From Malacoraja senta (taxonomy: Eukaryota): a stretch of 64,000 nucleotides of DNA. Location: the NCBI GenBank assembly GCA_038087875.1, contig CM075987.1, positions 18,168,001 to 18,232,000 of the forward strand, written 5' to 3'. Below are positions 20,696 through 62,400 of the stretch, one piece after another. Made by a program: the position numbers and the translations under genes. Every line of letters begins with the position of its first letter. The stretch's first letter is position 1. The notes beneath the pieces were generated by a model. That model was not told where the DNA came from. It was given only the letters and a program-made list of their open reading frames with translations, and ran no database searches.

Positions 20696-20971
20696 GCGCG
20701 GCACAGTGGCACAGTTGCTGCCTCACCGCAAGAGACACTGGCTCGATCCTGACCGCTGTCTGCGTGGCGTTTGTACGTTCTCTTCTTGGTCTGCGTGGGT
20801 TTTTACTCCGGATGCTCCAGTTTCCTCTCCAACATTTCAAAGACGTTCAGTGTTGTAGATTAATCGGCCACCGCAAAATTGATAAATTGTCTCTAATGTG
20901 CGTCAGATAGTGCTGGTCAACGGGGTGACCACTGGTCGTCGCGGACCGAAAGGTGCATCTCTAAACTAAAC
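20696..20971 (+). mobile_element. tRNA-derived V-SINE (HE1-like); duplicate at 27501-27778
   Basis: V-domain-like core GTTTGTACGTTCTC...TGCGTGGGTTT...CCGGATGCTCCAGTTTCCTC and (CTAAA)n tail. Confidence 0.8.
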
Positions 20972-21055
20972 CAAGGAAGGGTTTCGACAATAAATGTCCC
21001 CCATTCCTTCTCTCCACAGATGCTGCCTGTCCTGCTGAATTACTCCAGCACTTTG

Positions 21056-21912
21056 TAGGCTGGGTGAGTGGGAAAATGTTTGGCAGATGCTGTATAATTG
21101 TGGAAAAATGTGAGGTTATCCACTTTGGTGGCAAAAACAGGAAAGCAGACTATTATCTAAATGGTGGCCGATTAGGAAAACGGGGAGATGCAGCGAGACC
21201 TTGGTGTCATGGTACACCAGTGATTGAAAGTAGGCATGCAGGTGCAGCAGGCAGTGAAGAAAGCGAATGGTATGTTAGCTTTCATAGCAAAAGGATTTGA
21301 GTATAGGAGCAGGAGGTTCTACTGCAGTTGTACAGGGTCTTGTGAGACCACACCTGGAGTATTGCGTACAGTTTGGTCTCCAAATCTGAGGAAGGACATT
21401 ATAGCCATAGAGGGAGTGCAGAGAAGGTTCACCAGACTGATTCCTGGGATGTCAGGACTTTCATATGAAGAAAGATTGGATAGACTCGGCTTATACTCGC
21501 TAGAATTTAGGAGATTGAGAGGGGATCTTATAGAAACTTACAAAATTCTTATGGGGTTGGACAGGCTAGATGCAGGAAGATTGTTCCCGATGTTGGGGAA
21601 GTCCAGGACAAGGGGTCACAGTTTAAGGATAAAGGGGAAATCCTTTAAGACCGAGATGAGAAAAAACGTTTTCACACAGAGAGTGGTGAATCACTGGAAC
21701 TCTCTGCCACAGAGGGTAGTTGAGGCCAGTTAATTGGCTATATTTAAGAGGGAGTTAGATGTGGCCGTTGTGGCTAAAGGGATCAGGGGGTATGAGAGAA
21801 GGCAAGTATGGGATACTGAGTTGGATGATCAGCCATGATCATATTGAATGGCGGTGCAGGCTCGAAGGGCCGAATGGCCTACTCCTCCACCTATTTTCTA
21901 TGTATCTATGTA
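21056..21912 (+). mobile_element. 5'-truncated CR1 3' end (duplicate ~27865-28722)
   Basis: RT C-terminus (RRLRGDLIETYK, RTRGH) and 3' tail. Confidence 0.9.
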
Positions 21913-22177
21913 TCTATCTTCTCCACAGATGCTGCCTGTCCTGCTGAATTACTCCAGCACTTTGTGTCTATCTTCTCCACAGATGCTGCCTGACCCGCTG
22001 AGTTACTCCAGCACTTTGTGTCTACATCACAGATGCTGCCTGTCCCGTTAATTACTCCAGCACTTTGTGTCTATCTTCTCCACAGATGCTGCCTGACCCG
22101 CTGAGTTACATCAGCACTTTTTGTGTCTATCTTCTCCGCAGATGCTGCCTGACCTGCTGAGTTACTCCAGCACTTTC
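21913..22177 (+). repeat. About 5 tandem ~54-bp units derived from the Penelope pLTR (also ~28722-28986, ~57000-57150)
   Basis: Unit CACAGATGCTGCCTG.CC.GCTGA.TTACTCCAGCACTTTGTGTCTATC resembles the reverse complement of pLTR 7700-7745. Confidence 0.8.
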
Positions 22178-23342
22178 TCATAGAGATACAGTGTGGGAAA
22201 AAGGCCCTTTGGCCCAACTTGCCCACACTGTCCAAAATGTCCCAGCTACACTAGTCCCACCTGTCTGCGCTTGGCCCATATCCCTCCAAACCTGTCCAAT
22301 CCACGTACCCATCTAACTGTTTATTAACATTGGGATAGTCTCAGCCTCAACTACCTCATCTGGCAGCTCGTTTCATACACCTTTATTGTGTGAAAAAGTT
22401 ACCCCTCAGGTTCCCCTTCACCTTGAACCCATGTCCTCTGGTCATCGATTCCCCACTCTGGCGCAAGAGACTCTGTGCGTCTACCCGATCTATTCCCTCA
22501 AGAATTTATAAGTTCTCCATAAGATCACCCCTCATCCTCCTGTGCTCCAAAAAAATAAGGGCCCAGCCTACTCTGATATAGTAGTGGCCAGAGGATCTGG
22601 GGTGACGGAGGAACTGAAGGAAATCCACATTAGGCAGGAAATGGTGTTGGATGAACTGATGGGACTGAAGGCTGATAAATCCCCAGGGCCTGATGGTCTG
22701 CATCCCAGGGTACTTAAGGAAGGGCTCTAGAAATCGTGGATGCATTGGTGATAATTTTCCAATGTTCTATTGACTCAGGATCAGTTCCTGTGCATTGGAG
22801 AGTAGCTAATGTTATCCCACTTTTTAAGAAAGGCGGAGAGAAAAAACAGGGAATTATAGAAGTTAGCTTGACATCGGTGGTGGGGAAGATGCAGGAGTCA
22901 ATTATAAAAGATGAAATAGGTGAACATTTGGATAGCAGTAACAGGATCGGTCTCAGCATGGATTTACGAAGGGGGAATCATGCTTGACTAATCTTCTGGA
23001 ATTTTTGAAGATGTAACTAGGAAAATGGACAGGGAGAGCCAGTGGATGTAGTGTACCTGGACTTTCAGAAAGCATTTGATAAGGTATAGAGACCGGTCCT
23101 GTTGCTCAGAAGGGTAAGGAAAAGAAGAGGAGGGCAATATTAATAGGGGACTCTATAGTTAGGGGTCAGACAGGCGATTCTGTGGACGCCAGTCGGAGAC
23201 CCGGATGGTAGTTTGCCTCCCTGGTGCCAGGGTCTGTGATGTGTCCCAACGTGTCCAAGACATCCTGAAAGGGCAGGAGAGAGAGCCCGAGGTCGTGATA
23301 CATGTAGGTACCAATGACATAGGTAAAAAAAGAGAAGAGGTC

Positions 23343-23542
23343 NNNNNNNNNNNNNNNNNNNNNNNNNNNNNNNNNNNNNNNNNNNNNNNNNNNNNNNNNN
23401 NNNNNNNNNNNNNNNNNNNNNNNNNNNNNNNNNNNNNNNNNNNNNNNNNNNNNNNNNNNNNNNNNNNNNNNNNNNNNNNNNNNNNNNNNNNNNNNNNNNN
23501 NNNNNNNNNNNNNNNNNNNNNNNNNNNNNNNNNNNNNNNNNN
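23343..23542. other. Assembly gap (200 N)
   Basis: Run of N. Confidence 1.
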
Positions 23543-26129
23543 GTGGCCTGCAGCTGGCTCCAATCGTATTAGGCATTTTCACTTGGGTACAAGTATGAAT
23601 GAGAAGATGCTGGTACTGTTCATTGTCTGATCCTCGACAGGGGCAAGGAGGGCTTATATAAGGAACACTTCTCCATCCATTTTCCACCACGGATGGCTGA
23701 CCTGCTGAGTTCTACCGGCACTTTGGAGGGGATTGGACGGGCGACGTGTCGGGGTCTGGACACTGCCTGTTCCTCCATCTTGCGCGTCACCTTGTCAAAG
23801 TTTGTCTCTTAAAAAGCAGATAGCAACAAAATTGTTAAAGGTAAACCATGGCAATCTTTAATTGATTCGTCAGACAGGAGTGGCAAGATCTACAATGAGC
23901 ACAAACGTTGCTCAGTACTTCTCGGGCTCCACTCTCGGAACAAAGGAAAGTTAGCACAATTATACACTTTTCTTAACAGTAAAACCCTCCTACCGAGTAT
24001 GAATATGACACGACTGTAAGCTTCTATAGCCTTTCAGAATATAGGAAAAGCTGGGCCTAACAAGCTCATCCAATAACAAGTATTACGTATCTCTGGAGCG
24101 TCAGCTATTTTTTTCAATCTTGGCTTCTGTATGGCCTTGAAAGAAGCACGTTATTATGTAGGCTTCCATCTTAATGTCTTTATTAAAAAGACAACCTGTC
24201 CTCCATATTATGTTCCATATAATTTGCAAAGTCATTCAGACTTGGCACCGAGCCATTCTTTTGTTCTACTAGACAATGCTTTTGTAGAAGAACGACTCCA
24301 TTTTAGATTTGACTATTAGCTCTTTCACCTCACTCTGGCAATGGAGGCGGCCCAGGACAAAAAGATCAGTGTGGGAGTGGGAAGGGGAGTTAAAATGGTT
24401 GGCAACCGGGAGATCCAGCAGGCCTTGGCAGACTGAGTGCAAGTGTAGTGTGAAAGGCACGCCTAGTCTAGATACAAGAAGACTGCGTGTGTGAGAAAGA
24501 GCTTTTGTGAGAGAGCATGTAAGAGTGTGTGTGAGAGAGTGTGTGAGTGAGAGTATGTGTGTGAGAGTATGTGTGTGAGAGTGCGTGTGTGAGTGCGTGA
24601 GTGTGTGAGAGAGTGCGTGTGTGAGAGTGCGTGTGTGAGAGTGCGTGTGTGAGTGCGTGTGAGAGAGTGCGTGTGTGAGTGCGTGTGTGAGAGTGTGTGT
24701 GTGAGGAGTGCGTGTGAGAGAGTGCGTGTGTGAGAGAGTGCGTGTGTGAGAGCAAGAGAGAGAGGGAGTGTGTGAGAGAGAGGGACTGTGTCTGTGTGTG
24801 TGTGTGTGTGAGGGGAGGGGGGAGTGTTGTGTTGTGTGCGAGAGAGAGGGACTGTGTGTGTGTGTGTGTGAGAGTGAGAGAGAGAGAGGGAGTGTTTGTG
24901 TGTGTGAGAGAGGGACTGCATGTGTGAGAGAGCGGGAGTGTTTGTGAGAGAGAGCAAGAGAGAGGGAGTGTGTGTGAGAGAGAGAGAGAGCGGGGTGTGT
25001 GGTGAGAGAGGGAATGTGTGAGAGAGAGCAAGAGAGAGAGGGAGTATGTGTGAGAGAGGGAATGTGTGAAAGACAGCAAGAGAGAGTAAGAGGGAGTGTG
25101 TGAGAGGTAGTGTGTGAGAGAGAGCAAGAGAGAGGATGTGTGCGTGAGAGCAAGAGAGGTTGTGTGAGACAGCAAGAGAGGGCTGCGTGTGTGAGAGTGT
25201 GTATGAGATAGAAAAGGATGTGTGTGTGAGAGAGAACAAGAGAGAGAACAAGAGAGAGAGGGAGTGTGGTGTGAGAGGGGGTGGGGAGAGGGACGGAGGA
25301 GATGTGGGGAAGGAGAAGCTATCTATTTCTGAGTGGGGGAGGGCACCGGAGGGAAGGGGTGTCAAGGGTGTGTGTGAGAGACAGCAAACGAGAGAGGGAC
25401 TGTGTGAGAGAGAGGGAGCGAGAGAGGGAGTGTGTGAGACAGAGGGGACACAAGAGGGTGGAGTGGAGAGAATTTGTGTATGAGTGGGGGGGGGGGAGAG
25501 AGTGTTGAGAGGGGAGAGAGGAATGTATATGTGCAGCTTTAAGGATATTGGTCAGGTAGCATTTGGAGTATTGCATACAGTTCTGGTCACTCCATTACAG
25601 GACTGATGTGGAGGCTTTGGGGAAGGTGCAGGATGGTTAACCAGAATGGTTTAAAAACAAGGAACTGCAGATGCTGGTTTACAAAAAAGAACACAAAATG
25701 CGGGAGAAACTCAGCGGGACAGGCAGCATCTCTGGAGAGAAGGAATTGGTGGCATTTCGGGTCGAGACTGAAGAAGTGTCATGATACGACACGTTACCCA
25801 TTCCTTCCAGCATTTTGTGTCTACATAAACAGTGCCTATCCACGTGGCGGTGTGCCAGCAGGCCGGAGGAGCGGGCAAAGGCCTTGCCCATAGAGTGGGC
25901 AGGTGAAGGGGCGCTGGCTGGTGTGGACTCGCCGGTGCACCAGCAGGTGGTCAAGGTGGGTGAAGCCCTTACCACAGGACGTGCAGGGGAAGGGACGCTC
26001 ACCGCTGTGGGACGCCGGTGCTGCCACAGGCTGGTCATGCAGGTGAAACACTTGCCACACTCTGCGCACACAAAGGGTCTCTCTCCTGTGTGTATCCGCT
26101 GGTACTTCCACAGCCCCCGTGCGTTCTTG

Positions 26130-27271
26130 TCACAGTGGGAGCAGTTGCTCGCCGGCATGGGGTCCGCCGGTGTAGCCGCAACCCCCGCGAGCTGTCAAAC
26201 TCCTCACCGCAATGCGGGCAGTCGTAGGGCTGGCCACTGGTGTGCACGCACTGGTGAGACAGGGCTTGGGAGGCCATGGTAAAGCGCTCTCCAGACACTG
26301 GGCTGGGGAAGGGATGGTCGCTGGCGTGCACCCGCTGGTGGTACAGCAGCTTGGTGGAGCAGGTGAAGCCTTGCCACACTTGGTGCAGGTGTAGGGACGC
26401 TCGCCGGTGTGGGTGCGCCTGGTGCTCCAGCAGGGTGATGGACTGGGTGAAGCCCTTGCCGCACTGGGTGCAGGTGTAGGGACGCTCGCCGGTGTGGGTG
26501 CGCTGATGCACCAGCAGGTTGCTGGACTGGGTGAAGCCCTTGCCGCACTGGGCGCAGGTGTAGGGGCGCTCGCCGTTGTGGGTGCGCTGGTGCTTCAGCA
26601 GGTTGCCGGAGTGGGTGAAGCCCTTGCCGCACTGGGCGCAGGTGTAGGGGCGCTCGCCTGTGTGGGTACGCTGGTGGAAACAGCAGGTGAGTGGACTGGG
26701 TGAAGCCCTTGCCGCACTGGATGCAGGTGTAGGGACGCTCGCTGGTGTGGGTGCGCTGGTGCACCAGCAGGTTGCTGGAATGGTGAAGCCCTTGCCGCAT
26801 TCGCGGCAGGTGTAGGGCCGCTCGCTGGAGTGGGTGCGCTGGTGCTCCAGCAGGTTGCTGGAGCGGATGAAGCCCTTGCCGCAGTCGCTGAAGGTGTAGG
26901 GACGCTCCCCGGTGTGGCAGGCGCCTATGCTGCTTCAGGTGTGTGGACAACTTGAAGTCTTTGCCGCAGTCGGAGCAGGTGAAGGGCCGCTCACTGCTGT
27001 GCACCGCCGGTGATCCTGCAGCCCCGACAACCGGGCAAAGCTCTTGCCGCAGGTGGACCAGCCATAGGGCTTCTCACCCGCTGTGCACCCGCCGGTGTCT
27101 CTTCAGGTCATACGCCCTCGTAAAGTCCTTATCGCAGTCAGAGCAGTCGAAGGGTCGTTCTCCCGTGTGAACCCGCCGGTGGATCTCCAGCTGGCTAGGC
27201 TTCTGCCAGGCCTTACCACACACGTCACACTCATACCGCTTCTCCTTGTTGTGCCCCATGTGCCCCATCAT
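26130..27271 (-). CDS. C2H2 zinc-finger gene copy B (near-identical to A); frameshifted as assembled
   Basis: Same finger series as copy A; acceptor ends at 27402. Confidence 0.78.
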
Positions 27272-29901
27272 CGAGGCTCAGCCCCTCCAAGCTCAGCCTG
27301 CACACCGAGCAGATGGGGGGGGGGGGGGCTCGCCGGCACCCTGGCCGCCCTCATGGCTGTTCACTCCCCGTGTCTCCGTCCACAGCCACGGCTAATAGAC
27401 CCTGCAGGAGGGGAACACAGAGGGTCAACAAGCTGGCAAACAGGACATTACTAGAACATATTGGGTGTGTTTATGGCGGAGGAAACCGTTATATAATTCT
27501 GCGCGGCACAGTGGCACAGTTGCTGCCTCACCGCAAGAGACACTGGCTCGATCCTGACCACGGGTGCTGTCTGCGTGGCGTTTGTACATTCTCTTCTTGG
27601 TCTGCGTGGGTTTTTACTCCGGATGCTCAGTTTCCTCCAACATTTCAAAGACGTTCAGTGTTGTAGATTAATCGGCCACCGCAAAATTGATAAATTGTCT
27701 CTAATGTGCGTCAGATAGTGCTGGTCAACGGGTGACCACTGGTCGTCGCGGACCGAAAGGTGCATCTCTAAACTAAACCAAGGAAGGGTTTTCGACAATA
27801 AATGTCCCCCATTCCTTCTCTCCACAGATGCTGCTTGTCCTGCTGAATTACTCCAGCACTTTGTAGGCTGGGTGAGTGGGAAAATGTTTGGCAGATGCTG
27901 TATAATGTGGAAAAATGTGAGGTTATCCACTTTGGTGGCAAAAACAGGAAAGCAGATTATTATCTAAATGGTGGAGATTAGGAAAACGGGGAGATGCAGC
28001 GAGAACTTGGTGTCATGGTACACCAGTCATTGAAAGTAGGCATGCAGGTGCAGCAGGCAGTGAAGAAAGCGAATGGTATGTTAGCTTTCATAGCAAAGGA
28101 TTTGAGTATAGGAGCAGGGAGGTTCTACTGCAGTTGTACAGGGTCTTGGTGAGACCACACCTGGAGTATTGCGTTACAGTTTTGGTCTCCAAATCTGAGG
28201 AAGACATTATAGCCATAGAGGGAGTGCAGAGAAGGTTCACCAGACTGATTCCTGGGATGTCAGGACTTTCATATGAAGAAAGATTGGATAGACTCGGCTT
28301 ATACTCGCTAGAATTTAGGAGATTGAGAGGGGATCTTATAGAAACTTACAAAATTCTTATGGGGTTGGACAGGCTAGATGCAGGAAGATTGTTCCCGATG
28401 TTGGGGAAGTCCAGGACAAGGGGTCACAGTTTAAGGATAAAGGGGAAATCCTTTAAGACCGAGATGAGAAAAAACGTTTTCACACAGAGTGGTGAATCAC
28501 TGGAACTCTCTGCCACAGAGGGTAGTTGAGGCCAGTTCATTGGCTATATTTAAGAGGGAGTTAGATGTGGCCGTTGTGGCTAAAGGGATCAGGGGGTATG
28601 GAGAGAAGGCAATTATGGGATACTGAGTTGGATGATCAGCCATGATCATATTGAATGGCGGTGCAGGCTCGAAGGGCCGAATGGCCTACTCCTCCACCTA
28701 TTTTCTATGTATCTATGTATCTATCTTCTCCACAGATGCTGCCTGTCCTGCTGAATTACTCCAGCACTTTGTGTCTATCTTCTCCACAGATGCTGCCTGA
28801 CCCGCTGAGTTACTCCAGCACTTTGTGTCTACATCACAGATGCTGCCTGTCCCGTTAAATTACTCCAGCACTTTGGGTCTATCTTCTCCACAGATGCTGC
28901 CTGACCCGCTGAGTTACATCAGCACTTTTTGTGTCTATCTTCTCCGCAGATGCTGCCTGACCTGCTGAGTTACTCCAGCACTTTCTCATAGAGATACAGT
29001 GTGGGAAAAAGGCCCTTTGGCCCAACTTGCCCACACTGTCCAAAATGTCCCAGCTACACTAGTCCCACCTGTCTGCGCTTGGCCCATATCCCTCCAAACC
29101 TGTCCAATCCACGTACCCGTCTAACTGTTTATTAAACATTGGGATAGTCTCAGCCTCAACTACCTCATCTGGCAGCTCGTTTCATACACCTTTATTGTGT
29201 GAAAAAGTTACCCCTCAGGTTCCCCTTCACCTTGAACCCATGTCCTCTGGTCATCGATTCCCCACTCTGCGCAAGAGACTCTGTGCGTCTACCCGATCTA
29301 TTCCCCTCAAGAATTTATAAGTTCTCCATAAGATCACCCCTCATCCTCCTGTGCTCCAAAAAAATAAGGCCCAGCCTACTCTGATATAGTAGTGGCCAGA
29401 GGATCTGGGGTGACGGAGGAACTGAAGGAAATCCACATTAGGCAGGAAATGGTGTTGGATGAACTGATGGGACTGAAGGCTGATAAATCCCCAGGGCCTG
29501 ATGGTCTGCATCCCAGGGTACTTAAGGAAGGGGCTCTAGAAATCGTGGATGCATTGGTGATAATTTTCCAATGTTCTATTGACTCAGGATCAGTTCCTGT
29601 GCATTGGAGAGTAGCTAATGTTATCCCACTTTTTAAGAAAGGCGGGAGAGAAAAAACAGGGAATTATAGAAGTTAGCTTGACATCGGTGGTGGGGAAGAT
29701 GCAGGAGTCAATTATAAAAGATGAAATAGGTGAACATTTGGATAGCAGTAACAGGATCGGTCCGAGTCAGCATGGATTTACGAAGGGGAAATCATGCTTG
29801 ACTAATCTTCTGGAATTTTTTGAAGATGTAACTAGGAAAATGGACAAGGGAGAGCCAGTGGATGTAGTGTACCTGGACTTTCAGAAAGCATTTGATAAGG
29901 T

Positions 29902-32900
29902 ATAGAGACCGGTCCTGTTGCTCAGAAGGGTAAGGAAAAGAAGAGGAGGGCAATATTAATAGGGGACTCTATAGTTAGGGGGTCAGACAGGCGATTCTGT
30001 GGACGCAGTCGGGAGACCCGGATGGTAGTTTGCCTCCCTGGTGCCAGGGTCTGTGATGTGTCCCAACGTGTCCAAGACATCCTGAAAGGGCAGGGAGAGG
30101 AGCCCGAGGTCGTGATACATGTAGGTACCAATGACATAGGTAAAAAAAGAGAAGAGGTCCTGAAAGGAGAATTTAGGGAGTTAGGAGGGGAGTTAAAGAG
30201 AAGGACAGCAAAGGTAACAATCTCGGGATTACTGCCTGTACCACGCGACAGTGAGAGTAGGAATGGAGCGAGGTGGAGGATAAATGCGTGGCTGAAGGAC
30301 TGGTGCAGAAGGCAGGGATTCAAATTTCTGGATCATTGGGACTTCTTTTGTGGAAGGTTCGACCTGTACAAAAAGGATGGGTTGCACTTGAACCTGAGGG
30401 GGACCGATATCCTGGCGGGGAGATCTGCAAAGGCTACTGGGGAGACTTTAAACTAGAATGGTTGGGGGGAGGGACGCAAATAGAGAATGCTATTAGACAG
30501 TGTGTGAGGCAGGAGGCAGAGAAGGAAAGCACTCAGACCCAACATGTAGGGGGGAAAGAAGAAAACAATAATAAACAGAGAATAAGAGGTGGTGGGGTTC
30601 TTAAATGGGTGAGCAGAGAAACAGAGGGGTGTAAAATGCGGGCGGAAGCAATAGGTAGCAAGGTGAAAGGTAAAAGTGGCAGGCAGACAAATCCAGGACA
30701 AAAATCAAAAAGAGCCACTTTTCAACATAATTGTATAAGGGGTAAGAGCGTTGTAAAAACAAGTCTGAAGGCTTTGTGTCTCAATGCAAGGAGCATTCGT
30801 AATAAGGTGGATGAGTTGAATGTGCAGATAGCAATTAATGATTATGATATAGTTGGGATCACGGAGACATGGCTCCAAGGTGACCAAGGCTGGGAGCTGA
30901 ACATCCAGGGATATTCAATATTCAGGAGGGATAGAGAGAAAGGAAAAGGAGGTGGGGTGGCGTTGCTGGTTAGAGAGGAGATTAACGCAGTGGAAAGGAA
31001 GGACATTAGCTTGGAGGATGTGGAATCGGTATGGGTAGAGCTGCGAAACACTAAGGGGCAGAAAACGCTGGTGGGCGTTGTGTACAGGCCACCTAGCAGT
31101 AGTAGTGAAGTTGGGGATGGCATCAAACAGGAAATTAGAAATGCGTGCAACAAAGGCAAAACAGTTATAATGGGTGACTTCAATCTACATATAGATTGGG
31201 TGAATCAAATTGGCAGGGGTGCTGAGGAAGAGGATTTCTTGGAATGTATGAGGGATAGTTATCTAAACCAACATGTAGAGGAACCAACGAGAGAGCAGGC
31301 TATTCTAGACTGGGTATTGAGTAATGAGGAAGGGTTAGTTAGCAGACTTGTTGTGCGTGCCCCCTTGGGCAAGAGTGATCATAATATGGTTGAGTTCTTC
31401 ATTAGGATGGAGAGTGACATTGTTAATTCAGAAACAACGGTTCTGAACTTAAAGAAAGGTAACTTTGAGGGTATGAGACATGAATTGGCCAAGATTGACT
31501 GGCAATTAGTTCTAAAAGGGTTGATGGTGGATATGCAATGGAAGGCATTTAAAGACTGCATGGATGAACTACAAAAATTGTTCATCCCAGTTTGGCAAAA
31601 GAATAAATCAAGGAAGGTAGTGCATCCGTGGATAACAAGGGAAATCAGGGATAGTATCAAAGCAAAAGATGATGCGTACAAATTAGCCAGAAAAAGCAGC
31701 ATACCAGAGGACTGGGAGAAATTCAGAGACCAGCAGAGGAGGACAAAGGGCTTAATTAGGAAAGGGAAAATAGATTATGAAAGGAAACTGGCAGGGAACA
31801 TAAAAACTGACTGCAAAAGTTTTTATAGATATGTGAAGAGAAAGAGATTAGTTAAATCAAATGTAGGTCCCTTGCAGTCAGAAACAGGTGAATTGATCAT
31901 GGGGAACAAGGATATGGCAGACCAATTGAATAACTACTTTGGTTCCGTCTTCACTAAGGAAGACATAAATAATCTGCCGGAAATAGCAGGGGACCGCGGG
32001 TCAGAGATGGAGGAACTGGGTGAAATCCAGGTTAGTCGGGAAGTGGTGTTGGGTAAATTGAATGGATTAAAGGCCGATAAATCACCAGGGCCAGATAGGC
32101 TGCATCCCAGAGTACTTAAGGAAGTAGCTCCAGAAATAGTGGATGCATTAGTGATAATTTTTCAAAACTCTTTAGATTCTGGAGTAGTTCCTGAGGATTG
32201 GAGGGTAGCAAACGTAACCCCACTTTTTAAGAAGGGAGGGAGAGAGAAAATGGGGAATTACAGACCAGTTAGTCTAACATCGGTAGTGGGGAAACTGCTA
32301 GAGTCAGTTATTAAAGATGGGATAGCAGCACATTTGGAAAGTGGTGAAATCATTGGACAAAGTCAGCATGGATTTACGAAAGGTAAATCGTGTCTGACGA
32401 ATCTTATAGAATTTTTCGAGGATGTAACTAGTAGAGTGGATAGGGGAGAACAAGTGGATGTGTTGTATCTGGACTTTCAGAAGGCTTTCGACAAGGTACC
32501 ACATAAGAGATTAGGATACAAACTTAAATCACACGGTATTGGGGGTTCAGTATTGATGTGGATAGAGAACTGGCTGGCAAACAGGAAGCAAAGAGTAGGA
32601 GTAAACGGGTCCTTTTCACAATGGCAGGCAGTGACTAGTGGGGTACCACAAGGCTCAGTGCTGGGACCCCAGCTATTTACAATTTATATTAATGATCTGG
32701 ACGAGGGAATTGAAAGCAACATCTCCAAGTTTGCGGATGACACTAAGCTGGGGGGCAGTGTTAGCTGTGAGGAGGATGCTAGGAGACTGCAAGGTGACTT
32801 GGATAGGCTGGGTGAGTGGGCAAATGTTTGGCAGATGCAGTATAATGTGGATAAATGTGAGGTTATCCACTTTGGTAGCAAAAACGGGAAGGCAGACTAT

Positions 32901-33667
32901 TATCTAAATGGTGGCCGATTAGGAAATGGGGAGATGCAGCGAGACCTGGGTGTCATGGTACACCAGTCATTGAAAGTAGGCATGCAGGTGCAGCAGGCAG
33001 TGAAGAAAGCGAATGGTATGTTGGCCTTCATAGCAAGAGGATTTGAGTATAGGAGCAGTGAGGTTCTACTGCAGTTGTACAGGGTCTTGGTGAGACCACA
33101 CCTGGAGTATTGCGTACAGTTTTGGTCTCCAAATCTGAGGAAGGACATTATAGCCATAGAGGGAGTGCAGAGAAGGTTCACCAGACTGATTCCTGGGATG
33201 TCAGGACTTTCATATGAAGAAAGACTGGATAGACTTGGCTTATACTCGCTAGAATTTAGGAGATTGAGAGGGGATCTTATAGAAACGTACAAGATTCTTA
33301 TGGGGTTGGACAGGCTAGATGCAGGAAGATTGTTCCCGATGTTGGGGAAGTCCAGGACAAGGGGTCACAGCTTAAGGATAAGGGGAAAATCCTTTAAGAC
33401 CGAGATGAGGAAAAACTTTTTCACACAGAGAGTGGTGAATCTCTGGAACTCTCTGCCACAGAGGGTAGTTGAGGCCAGTTCATTGGCTATATTTAAGAGG
33501 GAATTAGATGTGGCCCTTGTGGCTAAAGGGATCAGGGGGTATGGAGAGAAGGCAGGTACGGGATACTGAGTTGGATGATCAGCCATGATCGTATTGAATG
33601 GCGGTGCAGGCTCGAAGGGCCGAATGGCCTACTCCTGCACCTAATTTCTATGTTTCTATGTTTCTAT
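29902..33667 (+). mobile_element. Young CR1 LINE, 5'-truncated in ORF1, inserted into an older CR1 RT (29380-29901, 33668-33897)
   Basis: Host frame AFDKV|xHRRLVGKIKAHG rejoins across it; ORF1 esterase is open to 30456; (TTTCTATG)3 tail. Confidence 0.92.
30273..33569 (+). CDS. CR1 ORF2 apurinic endonuclease + reverse transcriptase, uninterrupted (first in-frame ATG at 30636)
   Basis: 1098-codon open frame with [49 protein letters not shown] and KFADD. Confidence 0.95.
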   Translation: MEDKCVAEGLVQKAGIQISGSLGLLLWKVRPVQKGWVALEPEGDRYPGGEICKGYWGDFKLEWLGGGTQIENAIRQCVRQEAEKESTQTQHVGGKEENNNKQRIRGGGVLKWVSRETEGCKMRAEAIGSKVKGKSGRQTNPGQKSKRATFQHNCIRGKSVVKTSLKALCLNARSIRNKVDELNVQIAINDYDIVGITETWLQGDQGWELNIQGYSIFRRDREKGKGGGVALLVREEINAVERKDISLEDVESVWVELRNTKGQKTLVGVVYRPPSSSSEVGDGIKQEIRNACNKGKTVIMGDFNLHIDWVNQIGRGAEEEDFLECMRDSYLNQHVEEPTREQAILDWVLSNEEGLVSRLVVRAPLGKSDHNMVEFFIRMESDIVNSETTVLNLKKGNFEGMRHELAKIDWQLVLKGLMVDMQWKAFKDCMDELQKLFIPVWQKNKSRKVVHPWITREIRDSIKAKDDAYKLARKSSIPEDWEKFRDQQRRTKGLIRKGKIDYERKLAGNIKTDCKSFYRYVKRKRLVKSNVGPLQSETGELIMGNKDMADQLNNYFGSVFTKEDINNLPEIAGDRGSEMEELGEIQVSREVVLGKLNGLKADKSPGPDRLHPRVLKEVAPEIVDALVIIFQNSLDSGVVPEDWRVANVTPLFKKGGREKMGNYRPVSLTSVVGKLLESVIKDGIAAHLESGEIIGQSQHGFTKGKSCLTNLIEFFEDVTSRVDRGEQVDVLYLDFQKAFDKVPHKRLGYKLKSHGIGGSVLMWIENWLANRKQRVGVNGSFSQWQAVTSGVPQGSVLGPQLFTIYINDLDEGIESNISKFADDTKLGGSVSCEEDARRLQGDLDRLGEWANVWQMQYNVDKCEVIHFGSKNGKADYYLNGGRLGNGEMQRDLGVMVHQSLKVGMQVQQAVKKANGMLAFIARGFEYRSSEVLLQLYRVLVRPHLEYCVQFWSPNLRKDIIAIEGVQRRFTRLIPGMSGLSYEERLDRLGLYSLEFRRLRGDLIETYKILMGLDRLDAGRLFPMLGKSRTRGHSLRIRGKSFKTEMRKNFFTQRVVNLWNSLPQRVVEASSLAIFKRELDVALVAKGIRGYGEKAGTGY

Positions 33668-33932: not shown

Positions 33933-36900
33933 GAACAGCCGGCAGTAGTTGTGCACGTAGGCACAAACGACATCGGGAAGAAGAGGAAGGAGGTTCTCCA
34001 ACATGACTTCAGAGAGTTGGGAAGAAGACTGAAATGCCGGACTTCTAGGGTGGTTATCTCTGGATTGCTTCCAGTACCACGTGCTAGTGAGGACAGGAAC
34101 AGGGAGATAGGGGATCTGAATGTGTGGCTGAGGGGCTGGTGCAGGGAGCAAGGATTTAGATTTATAGACCACTGGGATCTCTTCTGGGGTAGGGGTGACC
34201 TGTACAAAAGGGACGGATTACACCTTAACTGGAGGGGGGCCGACATTCTGCCAGGCAGGTTTACTTGGGCTACACGTGTGGGTTTAAACTAAATAGTGGG
34301 GGGGGAGGGATTGACAAATTGGGAGTATAAAGCTGGAGTTGAAGAGGAAGTGGCTACAGGAAAAATTACAAAAGATTCCCGAATTAATGGGAAGGAAAGC
34401 TCGAGAATGGACAAAAGAGTAAGGTCAGAGCGAATTGAGAGGGGGGAAGTGAATATGGATGTCAAAGAACTGTATATGAATGCACGAAGTATAAGGAATA
34501 AAGTGGACGAGCTTGAGGCTCAGTTAGAAATTGGCAAGTATGATGTTGTGGGAATTACTGAGACATGGCTGAAAGAGGGCCAGGGCTGGGACATGAATTT
34601 TCAAGGGTATACCTCCTATGGAAAAGACAGACAGGTGGGCAGAGGGGGTGAGGAATAAAATTCAGTCCCTTGCAAGAGGTGACATTGAAACGGGAGATGT
34701 GGAGTCAGTATGGATAGAACTAAGGAATTGTTCTATCTAACGTACAAAATTCTTATGGGGTTGGACAGGCTAGATGCAGGAAGGTTGTTCCCGATGTTGG
34801 GGAAGTCCAGGACAAGGGGTCACAGCTTAAGGATAAGGGGGAAATCCTTTAAGACCGAGATGAGGAAAAACTTTTTCACACAGAGAGTGGTGAATCTCTG
34901 GAACTCTCTGCCACAGAGGGTAGTTGAGGCCAGTTCATTGGCTATATTTAAGAGGGAATTAGATGTGGCCCTTGTGGCTAAAGGGATCAGGGGGTATGGA
35001 GAGAAGGCAGGTACGGGATACTGAGTTGGATGATCAGCCATGATCGTATTGAATGGCGGTGCAGGCTCGAAGGGCCGAATGGCCTACTCCTGCACCTATT
35101 TTCTATGTATCTATGTATCTATGTAAGGGTAAAAAGACTAATGGGACTAACCTACAGGCCCCCAAACAGTGGCCTGGACATAGGGCGCAAGTTGAATCAG
35201 GAGTTAAAATTGGCATGTAGTAAAAGTAATGCTGTGGGAGATTTCAACCTGCAGACTGGGAAAATCAGGTTGGTACTGGACCCCAAGAAAGGGACTTTGT
35301 AGAGTGCCTTCGTGATGGATTCTTTGAACAGCTTGTATTGGAGCCTACCAGGGAGAAGGCAATTCTGGATTTAGTGTTATGTAATGAACCGGATTTGATA
35401 AAAGATCTCGAGGTTAATGAGCCATTAGGAGGCAGTGACCATAACATGTTCAGGTTTCATCAACAATTGGAGAGGGAGAAGAGTAGATCGGAAGTGTCAG
35501 TGTTGCAGTTGAATAAAGGGGACTATGGGGCCATGAGGGAGGAGCTGGCCAAAGTTGGCTGGAAAGATACACTAGCAGGGATGACAGTGGAACAAAAATG
35601 GCAGGTGTTTCTAGGAATAATACAGAATGTGCAGGATCAGTTCATTCCTAGGAGGAAGAAAGATTCCAAGGGGAGAAATGGACAACCATGGCTGACAAGG
35701 AATGTCAGGGACAGTATAAAAATTAAAGCGAAGAAGTACAACATAGCAAAGATGAGCAGGAAGCAAGAGGATTGGGTAATGTTTAAAGGACAACAAAAGA
35801 TAACTAAAAAGACAATACAGGGAGAAAAGATGAGGTACGAAGGTAAGCTAGCCAAGAATATAAAGCAAGATAGTAAAAGCTTCTTTAGGTATGTGAAGAG
35901 GATAAAATTAGTTAAGACCAAAGTTGGACCCTTGAAGACCGAAAAAGGTGCATTTATTATGGGGAACAAGGAAATGGCAGATGAGTAGAACAGGTACTTT
36001 GGATCTGTCTTCACTAAGGAGGACACAAACAATCTTCCTGATATAGTAATGGCCAGAGGATCTGGGGTGACAGAGGAACTGAAGGAAATCCACATTAGGC
36101 AGGAAATGGTGTTGAATAGACTGATGGGACTGAAGGCTGATAAATCTCCCGGGGCTGATGGTCTGCATCCCAGGGTACTTAAGGAAGTGGCTCTAGAAAT
36201 TGTGGATGCATTGGTGATAATTTTCCAATGTTCTATAGACTCAGGATCAGTTCCTGTGGATTGGAGGGTAGCTAATGTTATCCCACTTTTTAAGAAAGGC
36301 GGGGGAGAGAAAATGGGAAATTATAGACCAGTTAGCCTGACATCGGTGGTGGGGAAGATGCTGGAGTCAATTATAAAAGATGAGATAGCCGCACATTTGT
36401 ATAGCAGTAACAGGATCGGTCCGAGTCAGCATGGATTTACGAAGGGGGAATCATGCTTGACTAATCTTCTGGAATTTTTTGAAGACGTAACTAGGAAAAT
36501 GGACAAGGGAGATCCAGTGGATATAGTGTACCTGGACTTACAGAAAGCATTTGATAAGGTCCCACATCGGAGATTTGTGGGCAAAATTAGGGCACATGGT
36601 ATTGGGGGTAGAGTGCTGACATGGATAGAGAAGTGGTTGGCAGACAGGAAACAAAGAGTAGGGATTAACGGGTCCCTTTCAGAATGGCAGGTGGTGACTA
36701 GCGGGGTACCGCAAGGCTCGGTGCTGGGACCGCAGCTATTAACAATATACATCAATGATTTGGATGAAGGGATTCAAGGTAACATTAGCAAATTTGCAGA
36801 TGACACAAAGCTTGGTGGCAGTGTGAACTGTGAGGAGGATGCTAAAGAAAAGCGGAAGTACAACGGGATCTGGGGAGTCCTTGTCATCAGTCTATGAAAG

Positions 36901-37464: not shown

Positions 37465-39070
<1,606 letters not shown>

Positions 39071-40055: not shown

Positions 40056-40222
40056 ACTATGTCATGTTGTTACTTGTGGGCGGAGCACCAAGGCAAATTC
40101 CTTGTATGTGAATACTTGGCCAATAAACTTACTTACTTACAACAGAATATGTAAACAGTACATAACGAGAGAGAAAAACAAGGTTAAGTTAGGGTTGCCA
40201 ACAATTTCTCATTCCCAAATAA

Positions 40223-42080
40223 AAGGAATGTTACAAAATGTTGAGATTTTAAAAATCAAGCCTGTAATTTATCCCATCAGATGAAGCATAATTTTTTTTT
40301 AAATTTGATACCTAATTCACTTTCATATCTTCAGTATTAAAAAAAGTTATGGTCATTTTCATCCTCGGAAATTAGCATCTTGTTCCCTATTGCTTTTCCA
40401 TTAACTTAACACAAAAGCTGTGATCGAGGACAGTCAAAAGCCCATAACGTTTTTTTAAATTAAGAGAACTGAATGAAATGTTCAGTTATCATAGATTGAA
40501 GCATTCTGAATCAAACATGATTCATCTTACTTGGATGACCTGACATTAAAGCATATAATTAGTTAGTTACCTAATTGTAGATAATTATAAAATTGACCGT
40601 GGTGACGGAAATAGTAATAAACACCCAGACTTGCTTGAAAATTCAAAAATGTGATGTTCTCAAGATCAGAACTTTAATATTATTGTATTATGTGCTGTAA
40701 CTCTGTAACAGACAGGTAAAGAAATTAGAATTTCTAGCAAATGACCAAGACTTTATGGTGAAGATCAATTGCTAGCTGGTACATTGGCATATCATAATCA
40801 ATAGCATCATCATACTCCTCAAATGGTAACCAATAAGCAACTCTGTACACCTTGTTTTTCCTCAACTTTTCAATTTTAGCATTGTAAATGACATGTTTTT
40901 GCTCTTCAAACCACGCATGACATGCCTTTCTGCCCACTACTTTCCCATTAAGAATGTCCTGTAGAACATCACATTTGGAGTAGTCCAAATTCAGATAATC
41001 TCTGCGAATGCTGTCTAAGTCAGTCTCTTTTGCTAGGCATTTGGATTGACAATTTTGCATTTCTTCTTCGGAGACATCTGTTTAAAATGTGAAGGAAAAA
41101 AAACACTGAACAGCATTAACAGAAACGAGTTATTATTTGCAGTTTTAGATACAAGGTAGAAATGATAAAGTTAAACGCTAAAACAAATATTAAATACCCA
41201 ACAGTTTCATCAAATCAATTAAATTAATCCAATCAATTAAATTCATCTATCCATTTCTTAAGAAAACACAGAAAATTTTAAATAGCCTAAGTATCCAAAT
41301 AACAAATAACAAACTGATCCCATTCACACAAGAATTCATAATTTAACAAGATTTTTAAATCTCACCTTGTTATGAATACATATGCCAAATGGAAGGAATT
41401 TAATGTTCAATTCCCATAAATTAATCCAGAAACATCCACACTCAAGATAATCAAAATCATTATTTTTTGCACAATACATCTGACTCAAACTGTACTCTGA
41501 TATTCAGTATGAAAATATTGATCATGGACAGACAATAACACAACATATAGATGATTTAGATGGTCTTATGACATGATTGTGCAAAAAAATAATGAATTTG
41601 ATTATCTTGAGAGTGGATGTTTCTGGATTGTGATCGATAGGAATGTGGCGGCTGCCATGATTTAAGCCCCTATCGGTAGGCAAGACATGGTCGATTCGTA
41701 TCGGGGTCTAAATAATTTTTTTGGATCGTAAGATTAAATTGAAGCCACACCAAAAAGCAAGATAATAAGTTAAATATACGACATGCCTTTTGCTTTGTCC
41801 TGATATTGCGATCCGTGATGTTCAAGGCGTGTTTAGTCGCGTTTACATTTAATCCAGCCATGCAATCATCCAGCAATCTTTTTTTTTTTAAAGCCCCCGA
41901 AGAGAAGCCCAACGGAAGATTTTTTTTCATCAGCTAGCCGCCCGAGGAAATCCCTCCCCGACAACCAATACAAACCTGCATTTTAATCCCCCCCCCCCCC
42001 CCCGCCAAGTCTCCGGATTTGCACGCACAGACAGTGGCAGATTTGTAACACCGCTGATGGTAGGTTTTGTAACAACGCTA
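40223..42080 (-). mobile_element. Non-autonomous hAT-like DNA transposon with a 7-bp TSD
   Basis: Imperfect TIRs AAGGAATGTTACAAAA / TTTTGTAACAACGCTA; CAAATAA on both sides (40216-40222, 42081-42087). Confidence 0.75.
40734..41077 (-). CDS. Terminal exon encoding a Spindlin/Tudor-like domain (probable transposase C-terminus)
   Basis: Polypyrimidine tract and CAG acceptor at 41078-41080; open ~114 codons; VVGRKACHAW...YRVAY...MYQLAIDLHHKVLVI. Confidence 0.6.
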
Positions 42081-42461
42081 CAAATAAGGGACAAATGATC
42101 AAAATACGGGACACATTTCCGACGGCAATTCATTGAGCTACTCGGCCGTGGCTGGCTGAATGATGAGTTGGTCCGGGTGCTGGACTGCACACAAAGCCCA
42201 GCCAGTGGGCCAGCAGAGCTTTGGCCCAGGCCGCGCGCAAAGTGCGGCACCCCATCCAACTCATGGACCGATGATCGGCCATGAGAAGGAGAGAGGCATG
42301 TTGGTGTCGGCGGTAAGCGATGGTCCGAAGGTCGAACAGATGGCCAGACTGCCAATCGACCGACGGGGCCACGGACGAGGCGCTCCTGCGGCATTACATA
42401 GGCTGTGGTACGTTGGGAGGGTGAGGCGGAGCCAGACGTGGCGCTCCGACCCGACAGTCCC

Positions 42462-55479: not shown

Positions 55480-56563
55480 TATCTATCCACGTGGCAGTGT
55501 GCCAGTAGGCTGGAGGAGTGGGCAAAGGCCTTGTCACAGAGCGCACAGGTGAAGGGGCGCTGGCCGGTGTGGACCCGCCGGTGCTCCAGCAGGAGGTCAA
55601 GGCGGGTGAAGCCCTTACCTCAGGACGGGCAGGGGAAGGGACGCTCAACGCTGTGGGTACGCCGCTCCTGCCACAGGCTGGACATGCGGGTGAAACCCTG
55701 GCCACACTCAGCGCATGCAAAGGGTCTCTCTCTGGTGTGTATCCACTGGTGCTCCCACCGCCCCCGTGGGCGCAGCTGCTCGCCAGCATGGGACAGCCGG
55801 TGCTGCCGCAACCCACCGCAAGCTGTCAAGCGCCTCACCGCAATACGGGCGGTCCTAGGGCTGGCCACTGGTGTGCACGCGCTGGTGAGACAGGGCATGG
55901 GAGGCCATGGCAAAGCTCGGTCGCCAGCGTGCACCTGCTGGTGGAACATCAGCCTGGTGGAGGTGGTGAAGCCCTTGCCGCACTGGGCGCAGGTGTAAGG
56001 GCGCTCTCCGGTGCGCTGGTGGGACAGCAGGTGTCTGGAGTGGGTAAAATCCTTGCTGCAGTCACTGCAGGTGTAGGGGCGCTCGCCGGTGTGGGTGCGC
56101 TCATGCACCAGCAGGCTGTTGGAGCGGGTGAAGCCCTTGCCGCACTGGGCACCATAGGGCTTCTCGCCTGTGTGCACCTGCCGGTGACTTCAGGTCATTC
56201 ACCGTCTTGAAGCACTTGCCGCAGTCGGAGCAGGTGAAGGGCGGAGTGCACGTGGTTGTGCTGCTGCAGGTTGCTGTAGTGGGTGAAGCTCTTGCCGCAC
56301 TCCGAGCAGATGAAGGGGCGTTCTCCCGTGTGAACTAGCCGGTGGATCTCCAGCTGGCTCGGTTGCTGACAGGCCTTGCCACACAGGTCACACTCATAAC
56401 ACTTCTCCTTGTTGTGCCCCGTCATGTGGTCCTCCGTCGAAGCTCAGCTCCGCGAAGCTCAGCCCGCACACCGAGCAGATGTGGGGGGTTCACCGGCACC
56501 CTGGCCGCCCTCAATGACCGCTCACATCCCCGTCTCTCCATCCACAGCAACGGCTCCTAAACC
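55480..56563 (-). pseudogene. C2H2 zinc-finger gene copy C, diverged with deletions, frameshifts and a stop
   Basis: [18 protein letters not shown]... and the same acceptor as A/B; fewer fingers; broken frame. Confidence 0.8.
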
Positions 56564-59404: not shown

Positions 59405-62400
59405 ACATAGAAACATAGAAAATAGGTGCAGGAGTAGGCCATTCGGCCCTTCGAGCCTGCACCGCCATTCGATATGATCATGGCTGATCATCCAACTCAG
59501 TATCCCATCTCTGCCTTCTCTCCATACCCCCAGATCCCTTTAGCCACAGAGGGGCCACATCTAACTCCCTCTTAAATATAGCCAATGAACTGGCCTCAAC
59601 TACCTTCTGTGGCACAGAATTCCACAGATTCACCACGCTCTGTGTAAAAAATGATTTTCTCATCTCGGTCCTAAAAGACTTCCCTCTTATCCTTAAACTG
59701 TGACCCCTTGTCCTGGACTTCCCCAACATCGGGAACAATCTTCCTGCATCTAGCCTGTCCAACCCCTTAAGAATTTTGTCAGTTTCTATAAGATCCCCCC
59801 TCAATCTTCTAAATTCTAGCATGTACAAGCCGAGTCTATCCAGTCTTTCTTCATATGCAAGTCCTGCCATCCCAGGAATCAGTCTGGTGAACCTTCTCTG
59901 TACTCCCTCTATGGCAAGAATGTCTTTCCTCAGATTAGGAGACCAGAACTGTATGCAATACACCAGATGTGGTCTCACCAAGACCCTGTACACACTGCAC
60001 TGGAACCTCCCTGCTCTTATACTCAAATCCTTTTGCTATGAATGCTAACATACCATTTGCTTTCTTCACTGCCTGCTGCACCTGACTGGTGTACCATGAC
60101 ACCCACGTCTCGTTGTATCTCCTCTTTTCCTAATCGGCCACCATTCAGATAAAGTCTACTTTCCTATTTTTGCCACCAAAGTGGATAACCTCACATTTAT
60201 CCACATTATACTGCATCTGCCATGCATTTCCCCGCACACCCAACCTATCCAAGTCACCTTGCAGCCTCCTAGCATCCTCCTCACAGCTAACACTGCTCCC
60301 AGCTTCGTGTCATCCGCAAACCTGGAGATGTTGCATTCAATTCCCTCATCCAGTTCATTAATACATATTGTAAATAGCTGGGGTCCCAGCACTGAGCCTT
60401 GCGGTACCCCACAGTCACTGCCTGTCATCCTGAAAAGGACCCGTTTACTCCTACTCTTTGCTTCCTGTCTGCCAGCCAGTTCACTATCCACATCACTACT
60501 GAACCCCCAATACCGTGTGCTTTAAGTTTGCATACTAATCTCTTATGTGGGACCTTGTCGAAAGCCTTCTGAAAGTCCAGATACTACACATCCACTGGTT
60601 CTCCTTATCCACTCTACTAGTTACATCCTCGAAAAATTCTATAAGATTCGTCAGACATGATTTACCTTTCATAAATCCATGCTGACTTTGTCCAATGAAT
60701 TCACCACTTTCCAAATGTGCTGCTATCCCATCTTTAATAACTGACTCCAGAATTTTCCCCACCACCGATGTTAGACTAACTGGTCTGTAATTCCACGTTT
60801 TCTCTCTCCCTCCCTTTTTTAAAAGTGGGGTTACATTAGCTACCCTCCAGTCCTCAGGAACTACTCCAGAATCTAAAGAGTTTTGAAAAATTATCACTAA
60901 TGCATCCACTATTTCTGCGGCTACTTCCTTAAGTACTCAGGGATGCAACTTATCTGGCCCTGGGGATTTATCGGCCTTTAATTCATTCAATTTATACCTA
61001 ACACGACTTCCCGGCTAACCCTGGATTTCACTCAGTTCCTCCATCTCATTTAACCCTTGCTATTTCGGCAGATTATTTATGTCTTCCATAGTGAAGACAG
61101 TACCAAAGTAGTTATTCAATCGGTCTGCCATGTCCTTGTTCCCCATGATGAATTCGCCTGTTTCTGACTGTAAGGGACCTACATTTTGTTTTAACTAATC
61201 TTTCCTCTTCACATATCTATAAAAACTTTTGCAGTCAGTTTTTATGTTCCCTGCCAGTTTTCTTTCAAAATCTATTTCCCTTTCCTAATTAAGCCTTTTG
61301 TCCTCCTCTGCTGGACTCTGAATTTCTCCCAGTCCTCTGGTAGGCTGCTTTTTCTGGCTAATTTGTACGCTTCATCTTTTGTTTTGATACTATCCCTGAT
61401 TTCCCTTGTTATCCACGGACACACTACCTTCCCTGATTTATTCTTTTGCCAAACTGGGATGAACAATTGTTTTAGTTCATCCATGCAGTTTTTAAATGCC
61501 TTCCATTTCATATCCACCGTCAACCCCTTTAAGAATCATTTGCCCGTCTATCTTGGCCAATTCACGTCTCATACCCTCAAAGTCACCTTTCTTTAAGTTC
61601 AGCACCCTTGTTTCTGATTTAACAATGTCACTCTCCATCCTAATGAAGAACTCAACCATATTATGGTCACTCTTGCCCAAGGGGCACGCACAACAAGACT
61701 GCTAACTAACCCTTCCTCATTAATCAATACCCAGTCTAGAATGGCCTGCTCTCTCATTGGTTCCTCTACATGTTGGTTTAGATAACTATCCGCATACATT
61801 CCAAGAAATCCTCTTCCTCAGCACCCCTGCCAATTTGATTCACCCAATCTATATGTAGATTGAAGTCACCCGATTATAATTGTTTTACCTTTGTTGCACG
61901 CATTTCTAATTTCCTGTTTGATGCCATCCCCCACTACTACTGTTAGGTGGCCTGTACACAACTCCCACTAGCGTTTTCTGACCCGTAGTGTTTCGCAGCT
62001 CTACCCATATCGATTCCACATCCTCCAAGCTAATGTCCTTCCTTTCTATTGCGTTAATCTCCTCTCTAACCAGCAACGCTACCCCGCCTCCTTTTCCTTT
62101 CTGTCTAACACTCCTGAATATTGAATATCCCTGGATGTTCAGCTCCCAGCCTTGGTCACCCTGGAGCCATGTCTCCGTGATCCCAACTATATCATATTCA
62201 TTAATAACTATCTTCACATTCAACTCATCCACCTTATTACGAATGCTCCTTGCATTAAGATACAAAGCCTTCAGGCTTGTTTTTACAACACTCTTACCCC
62301 TTATACAATTATGTTGAAAAGTGGCCCTTTTTGATTTTTGCCCTGGATTTGTCTGCCTGCCACTTTTACTTTTCACCTTGCTACCTATTGCTTCTACCCT

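Follow-up and report, generated by a model that had tools for sequence, protein, structure and literature searches.

A dead deletion derivative in the Malacoraja senta genome and its probable parent, a cut-and-paste transposon encoding a DDE-like protein with a predicted Tudor domain

Many hAT transposons have ends that begin with TAG, and the P transposase has a coiled coil upstream of its catalytic region. Among the sister groups of hATw, one report describes hATx-6 of Hydra as a hAT with an 8-bp target site duplication (TSD), a BED domain and a hAT dimerisation domain, and depicts hATm-3 with a TSD of 8 nt (PMC8721813). For Galileo, TSDs of 7 bp are reported (PMC2775673, PMC4168063). Dada elements have TSDs of 6-7 bp and a DDE transposase with a C/DxxH motif; terminal inverted repeats (TIRs) are lacking, the genes have several exons and code for CCCC and CCHC zinc fingers, and small-RNA genes are the insertion targets. 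According to the same paper, a C/DxxH motif after the second D characterises the transposases of the hAT, Kolobok, P, MuDR and IS256 groups (PMC3706591). The integrase of chromoviruses (Ty3/gypsy) has a C-terminal chromodomain that is thought to direct integration (PMC3605345, PMC2832683). Here we describe an element at positions 40223 to 42080 of a 64-kb stretch of Malacoraja senta DNA (contig CM075987.1), which we call the window. The element is most probably an old non-autonomous copy of a cut-and-paste transposon whose 4.27-kb parent encodes a 978-amino-acid (aa) protein with a DDE-like core and a C-terminal Tudor domain.

The window element is a member of a 1.86-kb repeat with thousands of copies, 16-bp imperfect TIRs and a 7-bp TSD. 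A DNA search of its own genome (1.94 Gb) gave 4296 first-look candidates, and all 40 that were scored were matches. Full-length copies among these 40 aligned to query positions 2-1858 with 82-88% identity, which indicates that 40223/40224 and 42080 are the true edges of an interspersed repeat. The peptide remnant in the element gave 2172 first-look candidates in the same genome. The region 40223-42080 is AT-rich (35% GC) and its flanks are richer in GC. The element and its ends are as follows.

40223..42080, minus strand (sense of the parent gene): internally deleted non-autonomous transposon copy, 1858 bp, delimited by genome-wide copy matches
40216..40222, no strand: left copy of the 7-bp TSD CAAATAA, identical to the right copy
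40223..40238, minus strand: 3' TIR, plus-strand sequence AAGGAATGTTACAAAA, first base T>A in the window copy
42042..42079, no strand: two subterminal direct copies of TTTGTAACA(C/A)CGCT, 24 bp apart (repeat family D18)
42065..42080, minus strand: 5' TIR, plus-strand sequence TTTTGTAACAACGCTA
42081..42087, no strand: right copy of the 7-bp TSD CAAATAA, identical to the left copy

The termini of the window copy, AAGGAATGTTACAAAA ... TTTTGTAACAACGCTA, are complementary at 12 of 16 positions. Other copies start TAGGAATG, so base 1 of the window copy has been mutated to A from T. The ends were surveyed in the window copy and 27 others, and both ends were recognisable in 23 of these 28 copies. On the sense strand the copies begin TAGCG(T/A)TGTTACAAAAC and end TTTTGTAACATTCCTA. 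The two TSD copies were identical at 7 of 7 positions in 17 of the 23, with one mismatch in 3, three mismatches in 2 and six in 1. The TIRs and the 7-bp TSD noted in the initial annotation are thus borne out, the former as 16-bp imperfect repeats by this survey and by the autonomous copies described below, the latter as CAAATAA on both sides. The subterminal TTTGTAACA repeats are possibly binding sites for the transposase. At 9.4%, the window copy is further from the 28-copy majority sequence than any of the others. It is itself an old, ordinary dead deletion derivative.

The parent element was found through a 115-codon open frame in the window copy. Relatives of this frame among public proteins showed 55-68% identity, and one of them was 486 aa long. 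A search of the genome with the 486-aa relative recovered many copies of an uninterrupted 978-codon frame that starts MSPKKKCKIVNP and ends in the same domain as the window frame. The gene is a single open reading frame (ORF) and intronless. Both ends are present in five of six autonomous loci, and in those five the element is 4270-4274 bp long. Its 16-bp TIRs, TAGGTATGTTACAAAA and TAGCAATGTTACAAAA, begin with TAG and are complementary at 14 of 16 positions. All five autonomous copies with both ends had a perfect 7-bp TSD, and the sixth locus had an altered 5' end. At locus L021 the element occupies positions 1932-6204 and the 978-aa ORF, the sole ORF of at least 600 codons in that locus, positions 2757-5693. 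The TIRs and the fixed-length TSD found in many copies are those of a class II element of the TIR order.

Of the 88 protein matches that were scored, 12 had an intact frame. A search with the 2.5 kb specific to autonomous elements gave 215 first-look candidates, and 35 of 40 that were scored were full-length at 99% identity or more; loci L020, L021 and L022 were 99.8-99.9% identical to each other. The family looks recently active because at least 35 copies are at or above 99% identity, frames are intact and some copies are nearly identical. To describe target preference, 25 reconstructed target sites were symmetrised to n=50. C was present at position 1 in 28/50, G at position 7 in 28/50, and A or T at positions 2-6 in 38-43/50. 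The target is therefore a loose palindrome, C-WWWWW-G, across the 7-bp duplication. In sequencing runs X20 and X23, a 2.7-kb contig aligned to the right flank of L021 (6206-6638) and ended at the 3' boundary of the element; such contigs might conceivably represent an empty orthologous site. For the 2.7 kb specific to the autonomous element, no RNA data set was listed as a carrier.

Comparison of the window element with six autonomous loci located the deletion. Sense positions 7-109 and 656-1048 aligned to the 5' part of the autonomous element at 71-78% identity, and sense positions 1051-1857 aligned to its 3' part at 90%; the 2.6 kb between these parts was absent. A base-by-base comparison placed codon 15, two extra bases and then codon ~880 at the junction. 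The interior features of the window copy are listed here.

40734..41081, minus strand: 115-codon stop-to-stop frame plus stop, a 3' remnant of the parent gene and not an exon
40737..40946, minus strand: Tudor-core remnant (GKVVGRKACHAW ... VLVIC), assigned by model, structure and alignment comparisons
41030..41033, no strand: internal-deletion junction, 2.6 kb lost, parent codon ~15 abutting codon ~880 in another frame
41033..41077, minus strand: authentic start of the parent gene, MSPKKKCKIVNPNA then a stop, in agreement with the first codons of the 978-aa protein P0005
41423..41629, no strand: inverted repeat (I1) whose two arms of 46 nt show 96% complementarity and are separated by 115 nt, in a 5' stretch without autonomous counterpart
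41602..41658, minus strand: 18-codon ORF MAAATFLSITIQKHPLSR plus stop (MAAATF start), without support as coding

As the junction is out of frame, the authentic frame ends after 14-28 codons in all 28 copies (20 in most). The junction corresponds to L021 2801>5397, and it was seen in contigs of all four public runs compared with one autonomous locus. About 98 codons of the 115-codon frame are the terminal part of the 978-codon gene. Pfam gave no match to the frame beyond a chance-level DUF5734, and the Protein Atlas gave no usable match to the 115-aa ORF. Substitutions against the 28-copy majority were 73, 70 and 55 at the three codon positions, of 3217 sites each (2.3, 2.2 and 1.7%). This even distribution is consistent with neutral decay of the remnant frame. 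A second deletion class, more abundant and present in all four runs, leaves ~670 bp from the 5' end fused to ~370 bp from the 3' end (L021:2593-5841). Its skip of 3230-3239 bp takes out the gene completely; three of the four runs also had a skip of 3087 bp. The fact that the more abundant class removes the entire gene suggests that the Tudor-coding part was kept in the window subfamily by accident. Opposite-strand self-matches like the hairpin at 41423-41629 were also seen in other non-autonomous copies, and this hairpin may be a nested miniature inverted-repeat transposable element or a replaced segment.

The 978-aa protein has a variable, basic N-terminus followed by a long coiled coil at about 200-345. 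The conserved core comes next, then a lysine/arginine-rich helix and, at about 908-978, the C-terminal Tudor domain. The core reads D429 ... D506-x4-N ... C531-x2-H534 ... R603-Y-x-G-N-R ... W670 ... H779-N-x3-E784. In an alignment of 87 sequences its spacing was D-(77)-D-(25)-CxxH-(250)-E, and D429, D506, N511, C531, H534 and E784 were each conserved in at least 93% of the aligned sequences. Among the sequences covering each position, conservation was 87-100% at D429, T431, H437, N439, D506, R507, N511, C531, H534, R603, Y604, G606, N607, R608, H610, P669, W670, H779, N780 and E784. From this pattern the core appears to be a DDE catalytic domain with a long insertion. The 978-aa protein would then be the transposase, with the conserved acidic residues as its putative active site.

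The protein belongs to a large family. When 1.84 billion cluster representatives were scanned in full, 1384 of them proved related at E ≤ 0.001; at E ≤ 1e-10 the number was 704. Among the 150 relatives listed, 17 were of at least 850 aa, and 14 of these 17 had the C-terminal domain. Members that carry a name come from a crinoid, a sea urchin, a chiton and a whelk and are annotated as 'uncharacterized' or 'hypothetical', and many metagenome relatives lie on element-sized contigs of 3-6 kb. A profile search of a set of 5.8 billion proteins gave 18 close relatives, none of which had a Pfam domain. A Protein Atlas search with residues 380-860 returned unnamed eukaryotic clusters, with a DUF659 cluster at rank 27 (score 0.79). 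The family has 1384 cluster representatives and no curated protein model, and for this reason genome annotation calls its members 'uncharacterized'. The chiton protein XP_064605117.1 (973 aa, P0160) falls in the same 90% cluster as P0006. P0006 is 64% identical to P0001, and P0001 is about 75% identical to copies in the window genome. High similarity across phyla, between chiton and the window genome, gives a hint of horizontal transfer.

The C-terminal domain was modelled with AlphaFold 2 from an alignment of 25 sequences of the domain. The model was confident, with a predicted local distance difference test score (pLDDT) of 91.2 and a predicted template modelling score (pTM) of 0.80. It consists of a long basic helix, two short helices, four strands, a helix and a final strand. 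The strands lie at 65-72, 75-87, 91-98, 107-112 and 125-127 in the numbering of the model and form a small twisted beta-barrel of the Tudor/royal-family type. In a Foldseek search of the PDB, 26 of 36 rows were Spindlins among the matches listed. The top match was 7e9m_A (E 1.3e-2, probability 1.00, 77 columns, root-mean-square deviation 3.2), and Spindlin-1, -2B and -4 filled most of the top rows at probabilities of 0.97-1.00. The fold can be superposed on a Spindlin repeat. The model also matched the Tudor domains of RDM15, BAHCC1, SMN, PHF20 and SETDB1.

Sequence comparison placed the domain less closely. Pfam matched PTM_DIR17_Tudor to one of the 25 members (E 2.7e-5) and Agenet to two. 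The domain profile searched against the PDB reached Spindlin-3 and Spindlin-4 only at E 1.2 and 1.7. With hhalign, the profile aligned to repeat 1 of the host spindlin with a probability of 78% over 41 columns. The aromatic residues were strongly kept among 57 sequences (W70 in 56, Y79 in 55, Y92 in 50, Y96 in 57, W97 in 55 and F109 in 51), and D119 was kept in all 57. W70, Y79 and Y96 align with residues that we take to form the cage of Spindlin-1 repeat 1. There is one domain at the C-terminus, and the host spindlin has three. The Spin-Ssty model (PF02513) searched against the whole genome found the host spindlin gene only, with 6 matches above the cut-off spread over two loci; none of them fell in a transposon copy. 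Judged by its modelled structure, the domain would be a Tudor domain of Spindlin type; by sequence, membership of the Spin/Ssty family could not be demonstrated. It would bind methylated lysine or arginine, most plausibly on a histone tail.

The initial annotation had placed a Spindlin/Tudor-like domain at the C-terminus of the parent protein and had suggested checks by structure prediction and by Pfam Spin-Ssty. The Tudor-type fold with Spindlins as the nearest solved structures agrees with it; membership of Spin-Ssty is not supported. The host spindlin itself, with three Spin-Ssty repeats in three exons, occurs twice with identical scores, at C1:146910001-146913122 and at C1031:213027-216144. 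Contig C1 is of chromosome scale; C1031 is small, and the spindlin copy on it probably represents an uncollapsed haplotig.

Several results weigh against a transposase with a Spindlin-type reader. Pfam searches of P0005 and 19 full-length relatives, NCBIfam searches of 8 family proteins, and PDB sequence searches with P0005 and with the 87-sequence profile returned coiled-coil or chance matches only (coiled-coil noise in the case of NCBIfam). Comparisons of the family profile by hhalign with single ORFs from the window genome gave 0.08% for a genuine hAT, 0.65% for a P-like ORF and 0.76% for a MULE, although single-sequence templates are weak tests. In the full-length distant relative L062 (42% identity) no convincing TIRs could be defined. 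As for the domain, Foldseek gave no match in the PDB at E ≤ 0.001, and Spin-Ssty gave no match at E ≤ 10 in the window ORF or in any of the 25 domain members, nor at E ≤ 0.1 in any of the 19 full-length relatives. Repeats 2 and 3 of the host spindlin reached only 0.6% and 0.07% by hhalign, and the host SMN Tudor 17%.

The initial annotation had read the locus as a spliced gene of a hATw-type hAT transposon, starting at the ATG at 41658 (MAAATF), with its catalytic exons deleted and the Tudor domain in an intact last exon. The ATG and the open frame (40737-41081, minus strand, 115 codons) do exist as quoted, a polypyrimidine tract followed by AG lies upstream of 41077, and the TIRs start with TAG as many hAT ends do. 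However, the ATG at 41658 opens only 18 codons (MAAATFLSITIQKHPLSR*) before a stop, within a 5' segment without equivalent in autonomous copies. Because the parent is intronless, the apparent splice acceptor is the 5' leader of the start codon at 41077 and the 'last exon' is the 3' end of the gene. The two-exon model therefore falls. A catalytic region has indeed been lost, but by internal deletion of an uninterrupted gene and not as exons. Full-length TIR-bounded parents, which had been predicted with a hAT core, were found in the genome at 4.27 kb and gave no hAT assignment. The model of the hAT dimerisation domain (PF05699), which picks out 150 genuine hAT loci in the window genome, matched neither P0005 (threshold E ≤ 10) nor any of the 19 relatives (E ≤ 0.1). 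A BED domain was likewise not found, the TSD is 7 bp and not the 8 bp of hAT elements (17/23 non-autonomous and 5/5 autonomous copies), and the hhalign value against a genuine hAT was the 0.08% given above. As to a 7-bp TSD for hATw, the papers found use hAT-hATw merely as a RepeatMasker label. We regard a spliced hATw gene as scarcely credible. It is also very improbable, if slightly less so, that the non-autonomous family makes a Tudor-only protein of 108 aa that competes with or regulates the transposase, as truncated P-element proteins do. A second ATG at 41060, out of frame with the parent start, could open 108 codons; it is kept in 27 of 28 copies, 18 of the 28 have the frame open (at 107 codons in one of them), and position -3 is a purine at this ATG and a pyrimidine at the first (41077). 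Against such a product, changes are even over the codon positions, 18 open frames of 28 are about what we estimate for neutral divergence of ~2%, and the larger deletion class removes the whole gene, so that retention of the Tudor part looks incidental.

Two further alternatives concern the parent protein. It could be a passenger or accessory protein of an element moved by an enzyme encoded elsewhere, and the lack of a sequence match to any known transposase family would fit this. But it is the product of the only ORF of at least 600 codons in L021, a locus that contains the whole autonomous element, and the elements without most of its gene are precisely the non-autonomous forms. The D..D..CxxH..E spacing and its conservation fit the hAT/P/MuDR/Kolobok group, and the metagenome relatives lie on contigs the size of an element. 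A passenger role is thus quite unlikely. That the Tudor domain is no histone reader deserves more weight, though we still think it the less likely case. It might bind methyl-arginine of a non-histone partner in the piRNA pathway or in splicing (cf. SMN and TDRD), bind nucleic acid or serve transposase assembly: the Tudor of host SMN can be aligned with this core (17%), and a fold alone does not give the ligand. Yet the best structural matches are the histone readers, namely the Spindlins, the BAHCC1 TTD and RDM15, and the conserved aromatics align to the presumed cage residues of spindlin repeat 1.

The history of the window element may be pictured as follows. Loss of 2.6 kb fused codon ~15 to codon ~880 in the wrong frame and gave the 1.86-kb derivative, and transposase supplied by other copies would have mobilised this derivative to thousands of copies. 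By analogy with known transposon families, the 978-aa protein would bind the TIRs and the subterminal TTTGTAACA repeats, assemble through its coiled coil, and cut and rejoin DNA at its DDE site, with a stagger of 7 bp between the two strands. Given its fold and its conserved cage, the Tudor domain could tether the transposase complex to particular chromatin and so bias integration.

The interest of the locus centres on the parent element and not on the window copy. Reader-steered integration is known from lentiviral integrases, which are tethered by LEDGF, and the RAG recombinase has a reader domain in the PHD finger of RAG2. In a literature search, with Repbase outside its scope, no description of a cut-and-paste transposase with a built-in Tudor domain was found. 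If the Tudor domain reads a histone mark, nature would offer in this family a case of DNA transposition guided by chromatin and, since near-identical intact copies exist, a possible source of a targetable transposase. A broader proposal is that the family is a DDE lineage of superfamily rank that is not in print, spread over marine invertebrates and at least one vertebrate, with 7-bp TSDs, no curated model and a Spindlin-type reader that chooses chromatin, and that vertebrate spindlin/Ssty arose wholly or partly from a domesticated copy. We consider this proposal as a whole improbable.

The remainder of the window contains other repeats. An intact 1102-codon frame at 30261-33569 (plus strand) has endonuclease and reverse-transcriptase motifs and looks like ORF2 of a long interspersed nuclear element (LINE). 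Partial copies of this LINE-like frame lie at 12027-14542, 35230-36897 and 59478-62712. A tandem segmental duplication of ~7 kb covers 17640-22176 and 24522-28984. Each unit contains a GT/GA-rich microsatellite, a minus-strand C2H2 zinc-finger array of 84-bp repeats (19527-20198 / 26333-27001) and a 54-bp tandem resembling a short interspersed nuclear element (21909-22176 / 28716-28984). There is also a third zinc-finger ORF, at 55620-56189. At 37558-38797, ~72 copies of a G-rich 18-bp unit (GTGGGTGAGGCAGGGGGT) form a minisatellite with 70% GC and a strong GC skew. A run of N at ~23300-23600, an assembly gap, appears as X in the frame 23166-23711.

Compared with the described systems, the window family resembles the hAT elements (Ac, hobo, Hermes and hATx-6 of Hydra) in TIR-bounded cut-and-paste organisation, in TIRs beginning with TAG, in the CxxH after the second D (PMC3706591) and in the long stretch between the second D and E. 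It differs from hATx-6 in its 7-bp TSD and in that neither BED nor dimerisation domain was found. The 7-bp TSD is shared with the Galileo/1360 branch of the P superfamily, and the window family, like P transposase, has a coiled coil upstream of its putative catalytic region. Unlike P elements, it has no Pfam match to THAP or to the THAP9/P RNase H domain, and it has CxxH and not DxxH. With Dada it has in common the TSD length and a motif of the C/DxxH type; it differs from Dada in having TIRs, an intronless gene and varied CWWWWWG targets, and in being without CCCC/CCHC fingers. For MuDR/MULE, no Pfam match to the MULE domain (PF10551) was found, and the TSD is 7 bp as against 8-10 bp. As the family lacks defining features of each of hAT, P, Dada and MULE, we assign it to no superfamily.

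For the Tudor domain, the nearest comparison is repeat 2 of the Tudor-like (Spin/Ssty) repeats of Spindlin-1 (PDB 7e9m, 5y5w, 4mzg, 4h75), with which it shares the strand order and the closing helix and strand. Its aromatics stand at the aligned cage positions, and it has a motif similar to MYQL..D...GDL of host spindlin repeat 2. In contrast to Spindlin, it is single and not one of three repeats, has no Spin-Ssty match, is 13-19% identical, and is fused to a mobile-element protein; binding of methylated histone is in its case a prediction. The closest functional parallel is the chromovirus integrase, in which a small royal-family reader likewise stands at the C-terminus of an integrating enzyme. 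Chromoviruses are long terminal repeat retrotransposons with a retroviral-type integrase and a chromodomain, whereas the window family would combine cut-and-paste transposition with a Tudor domain.

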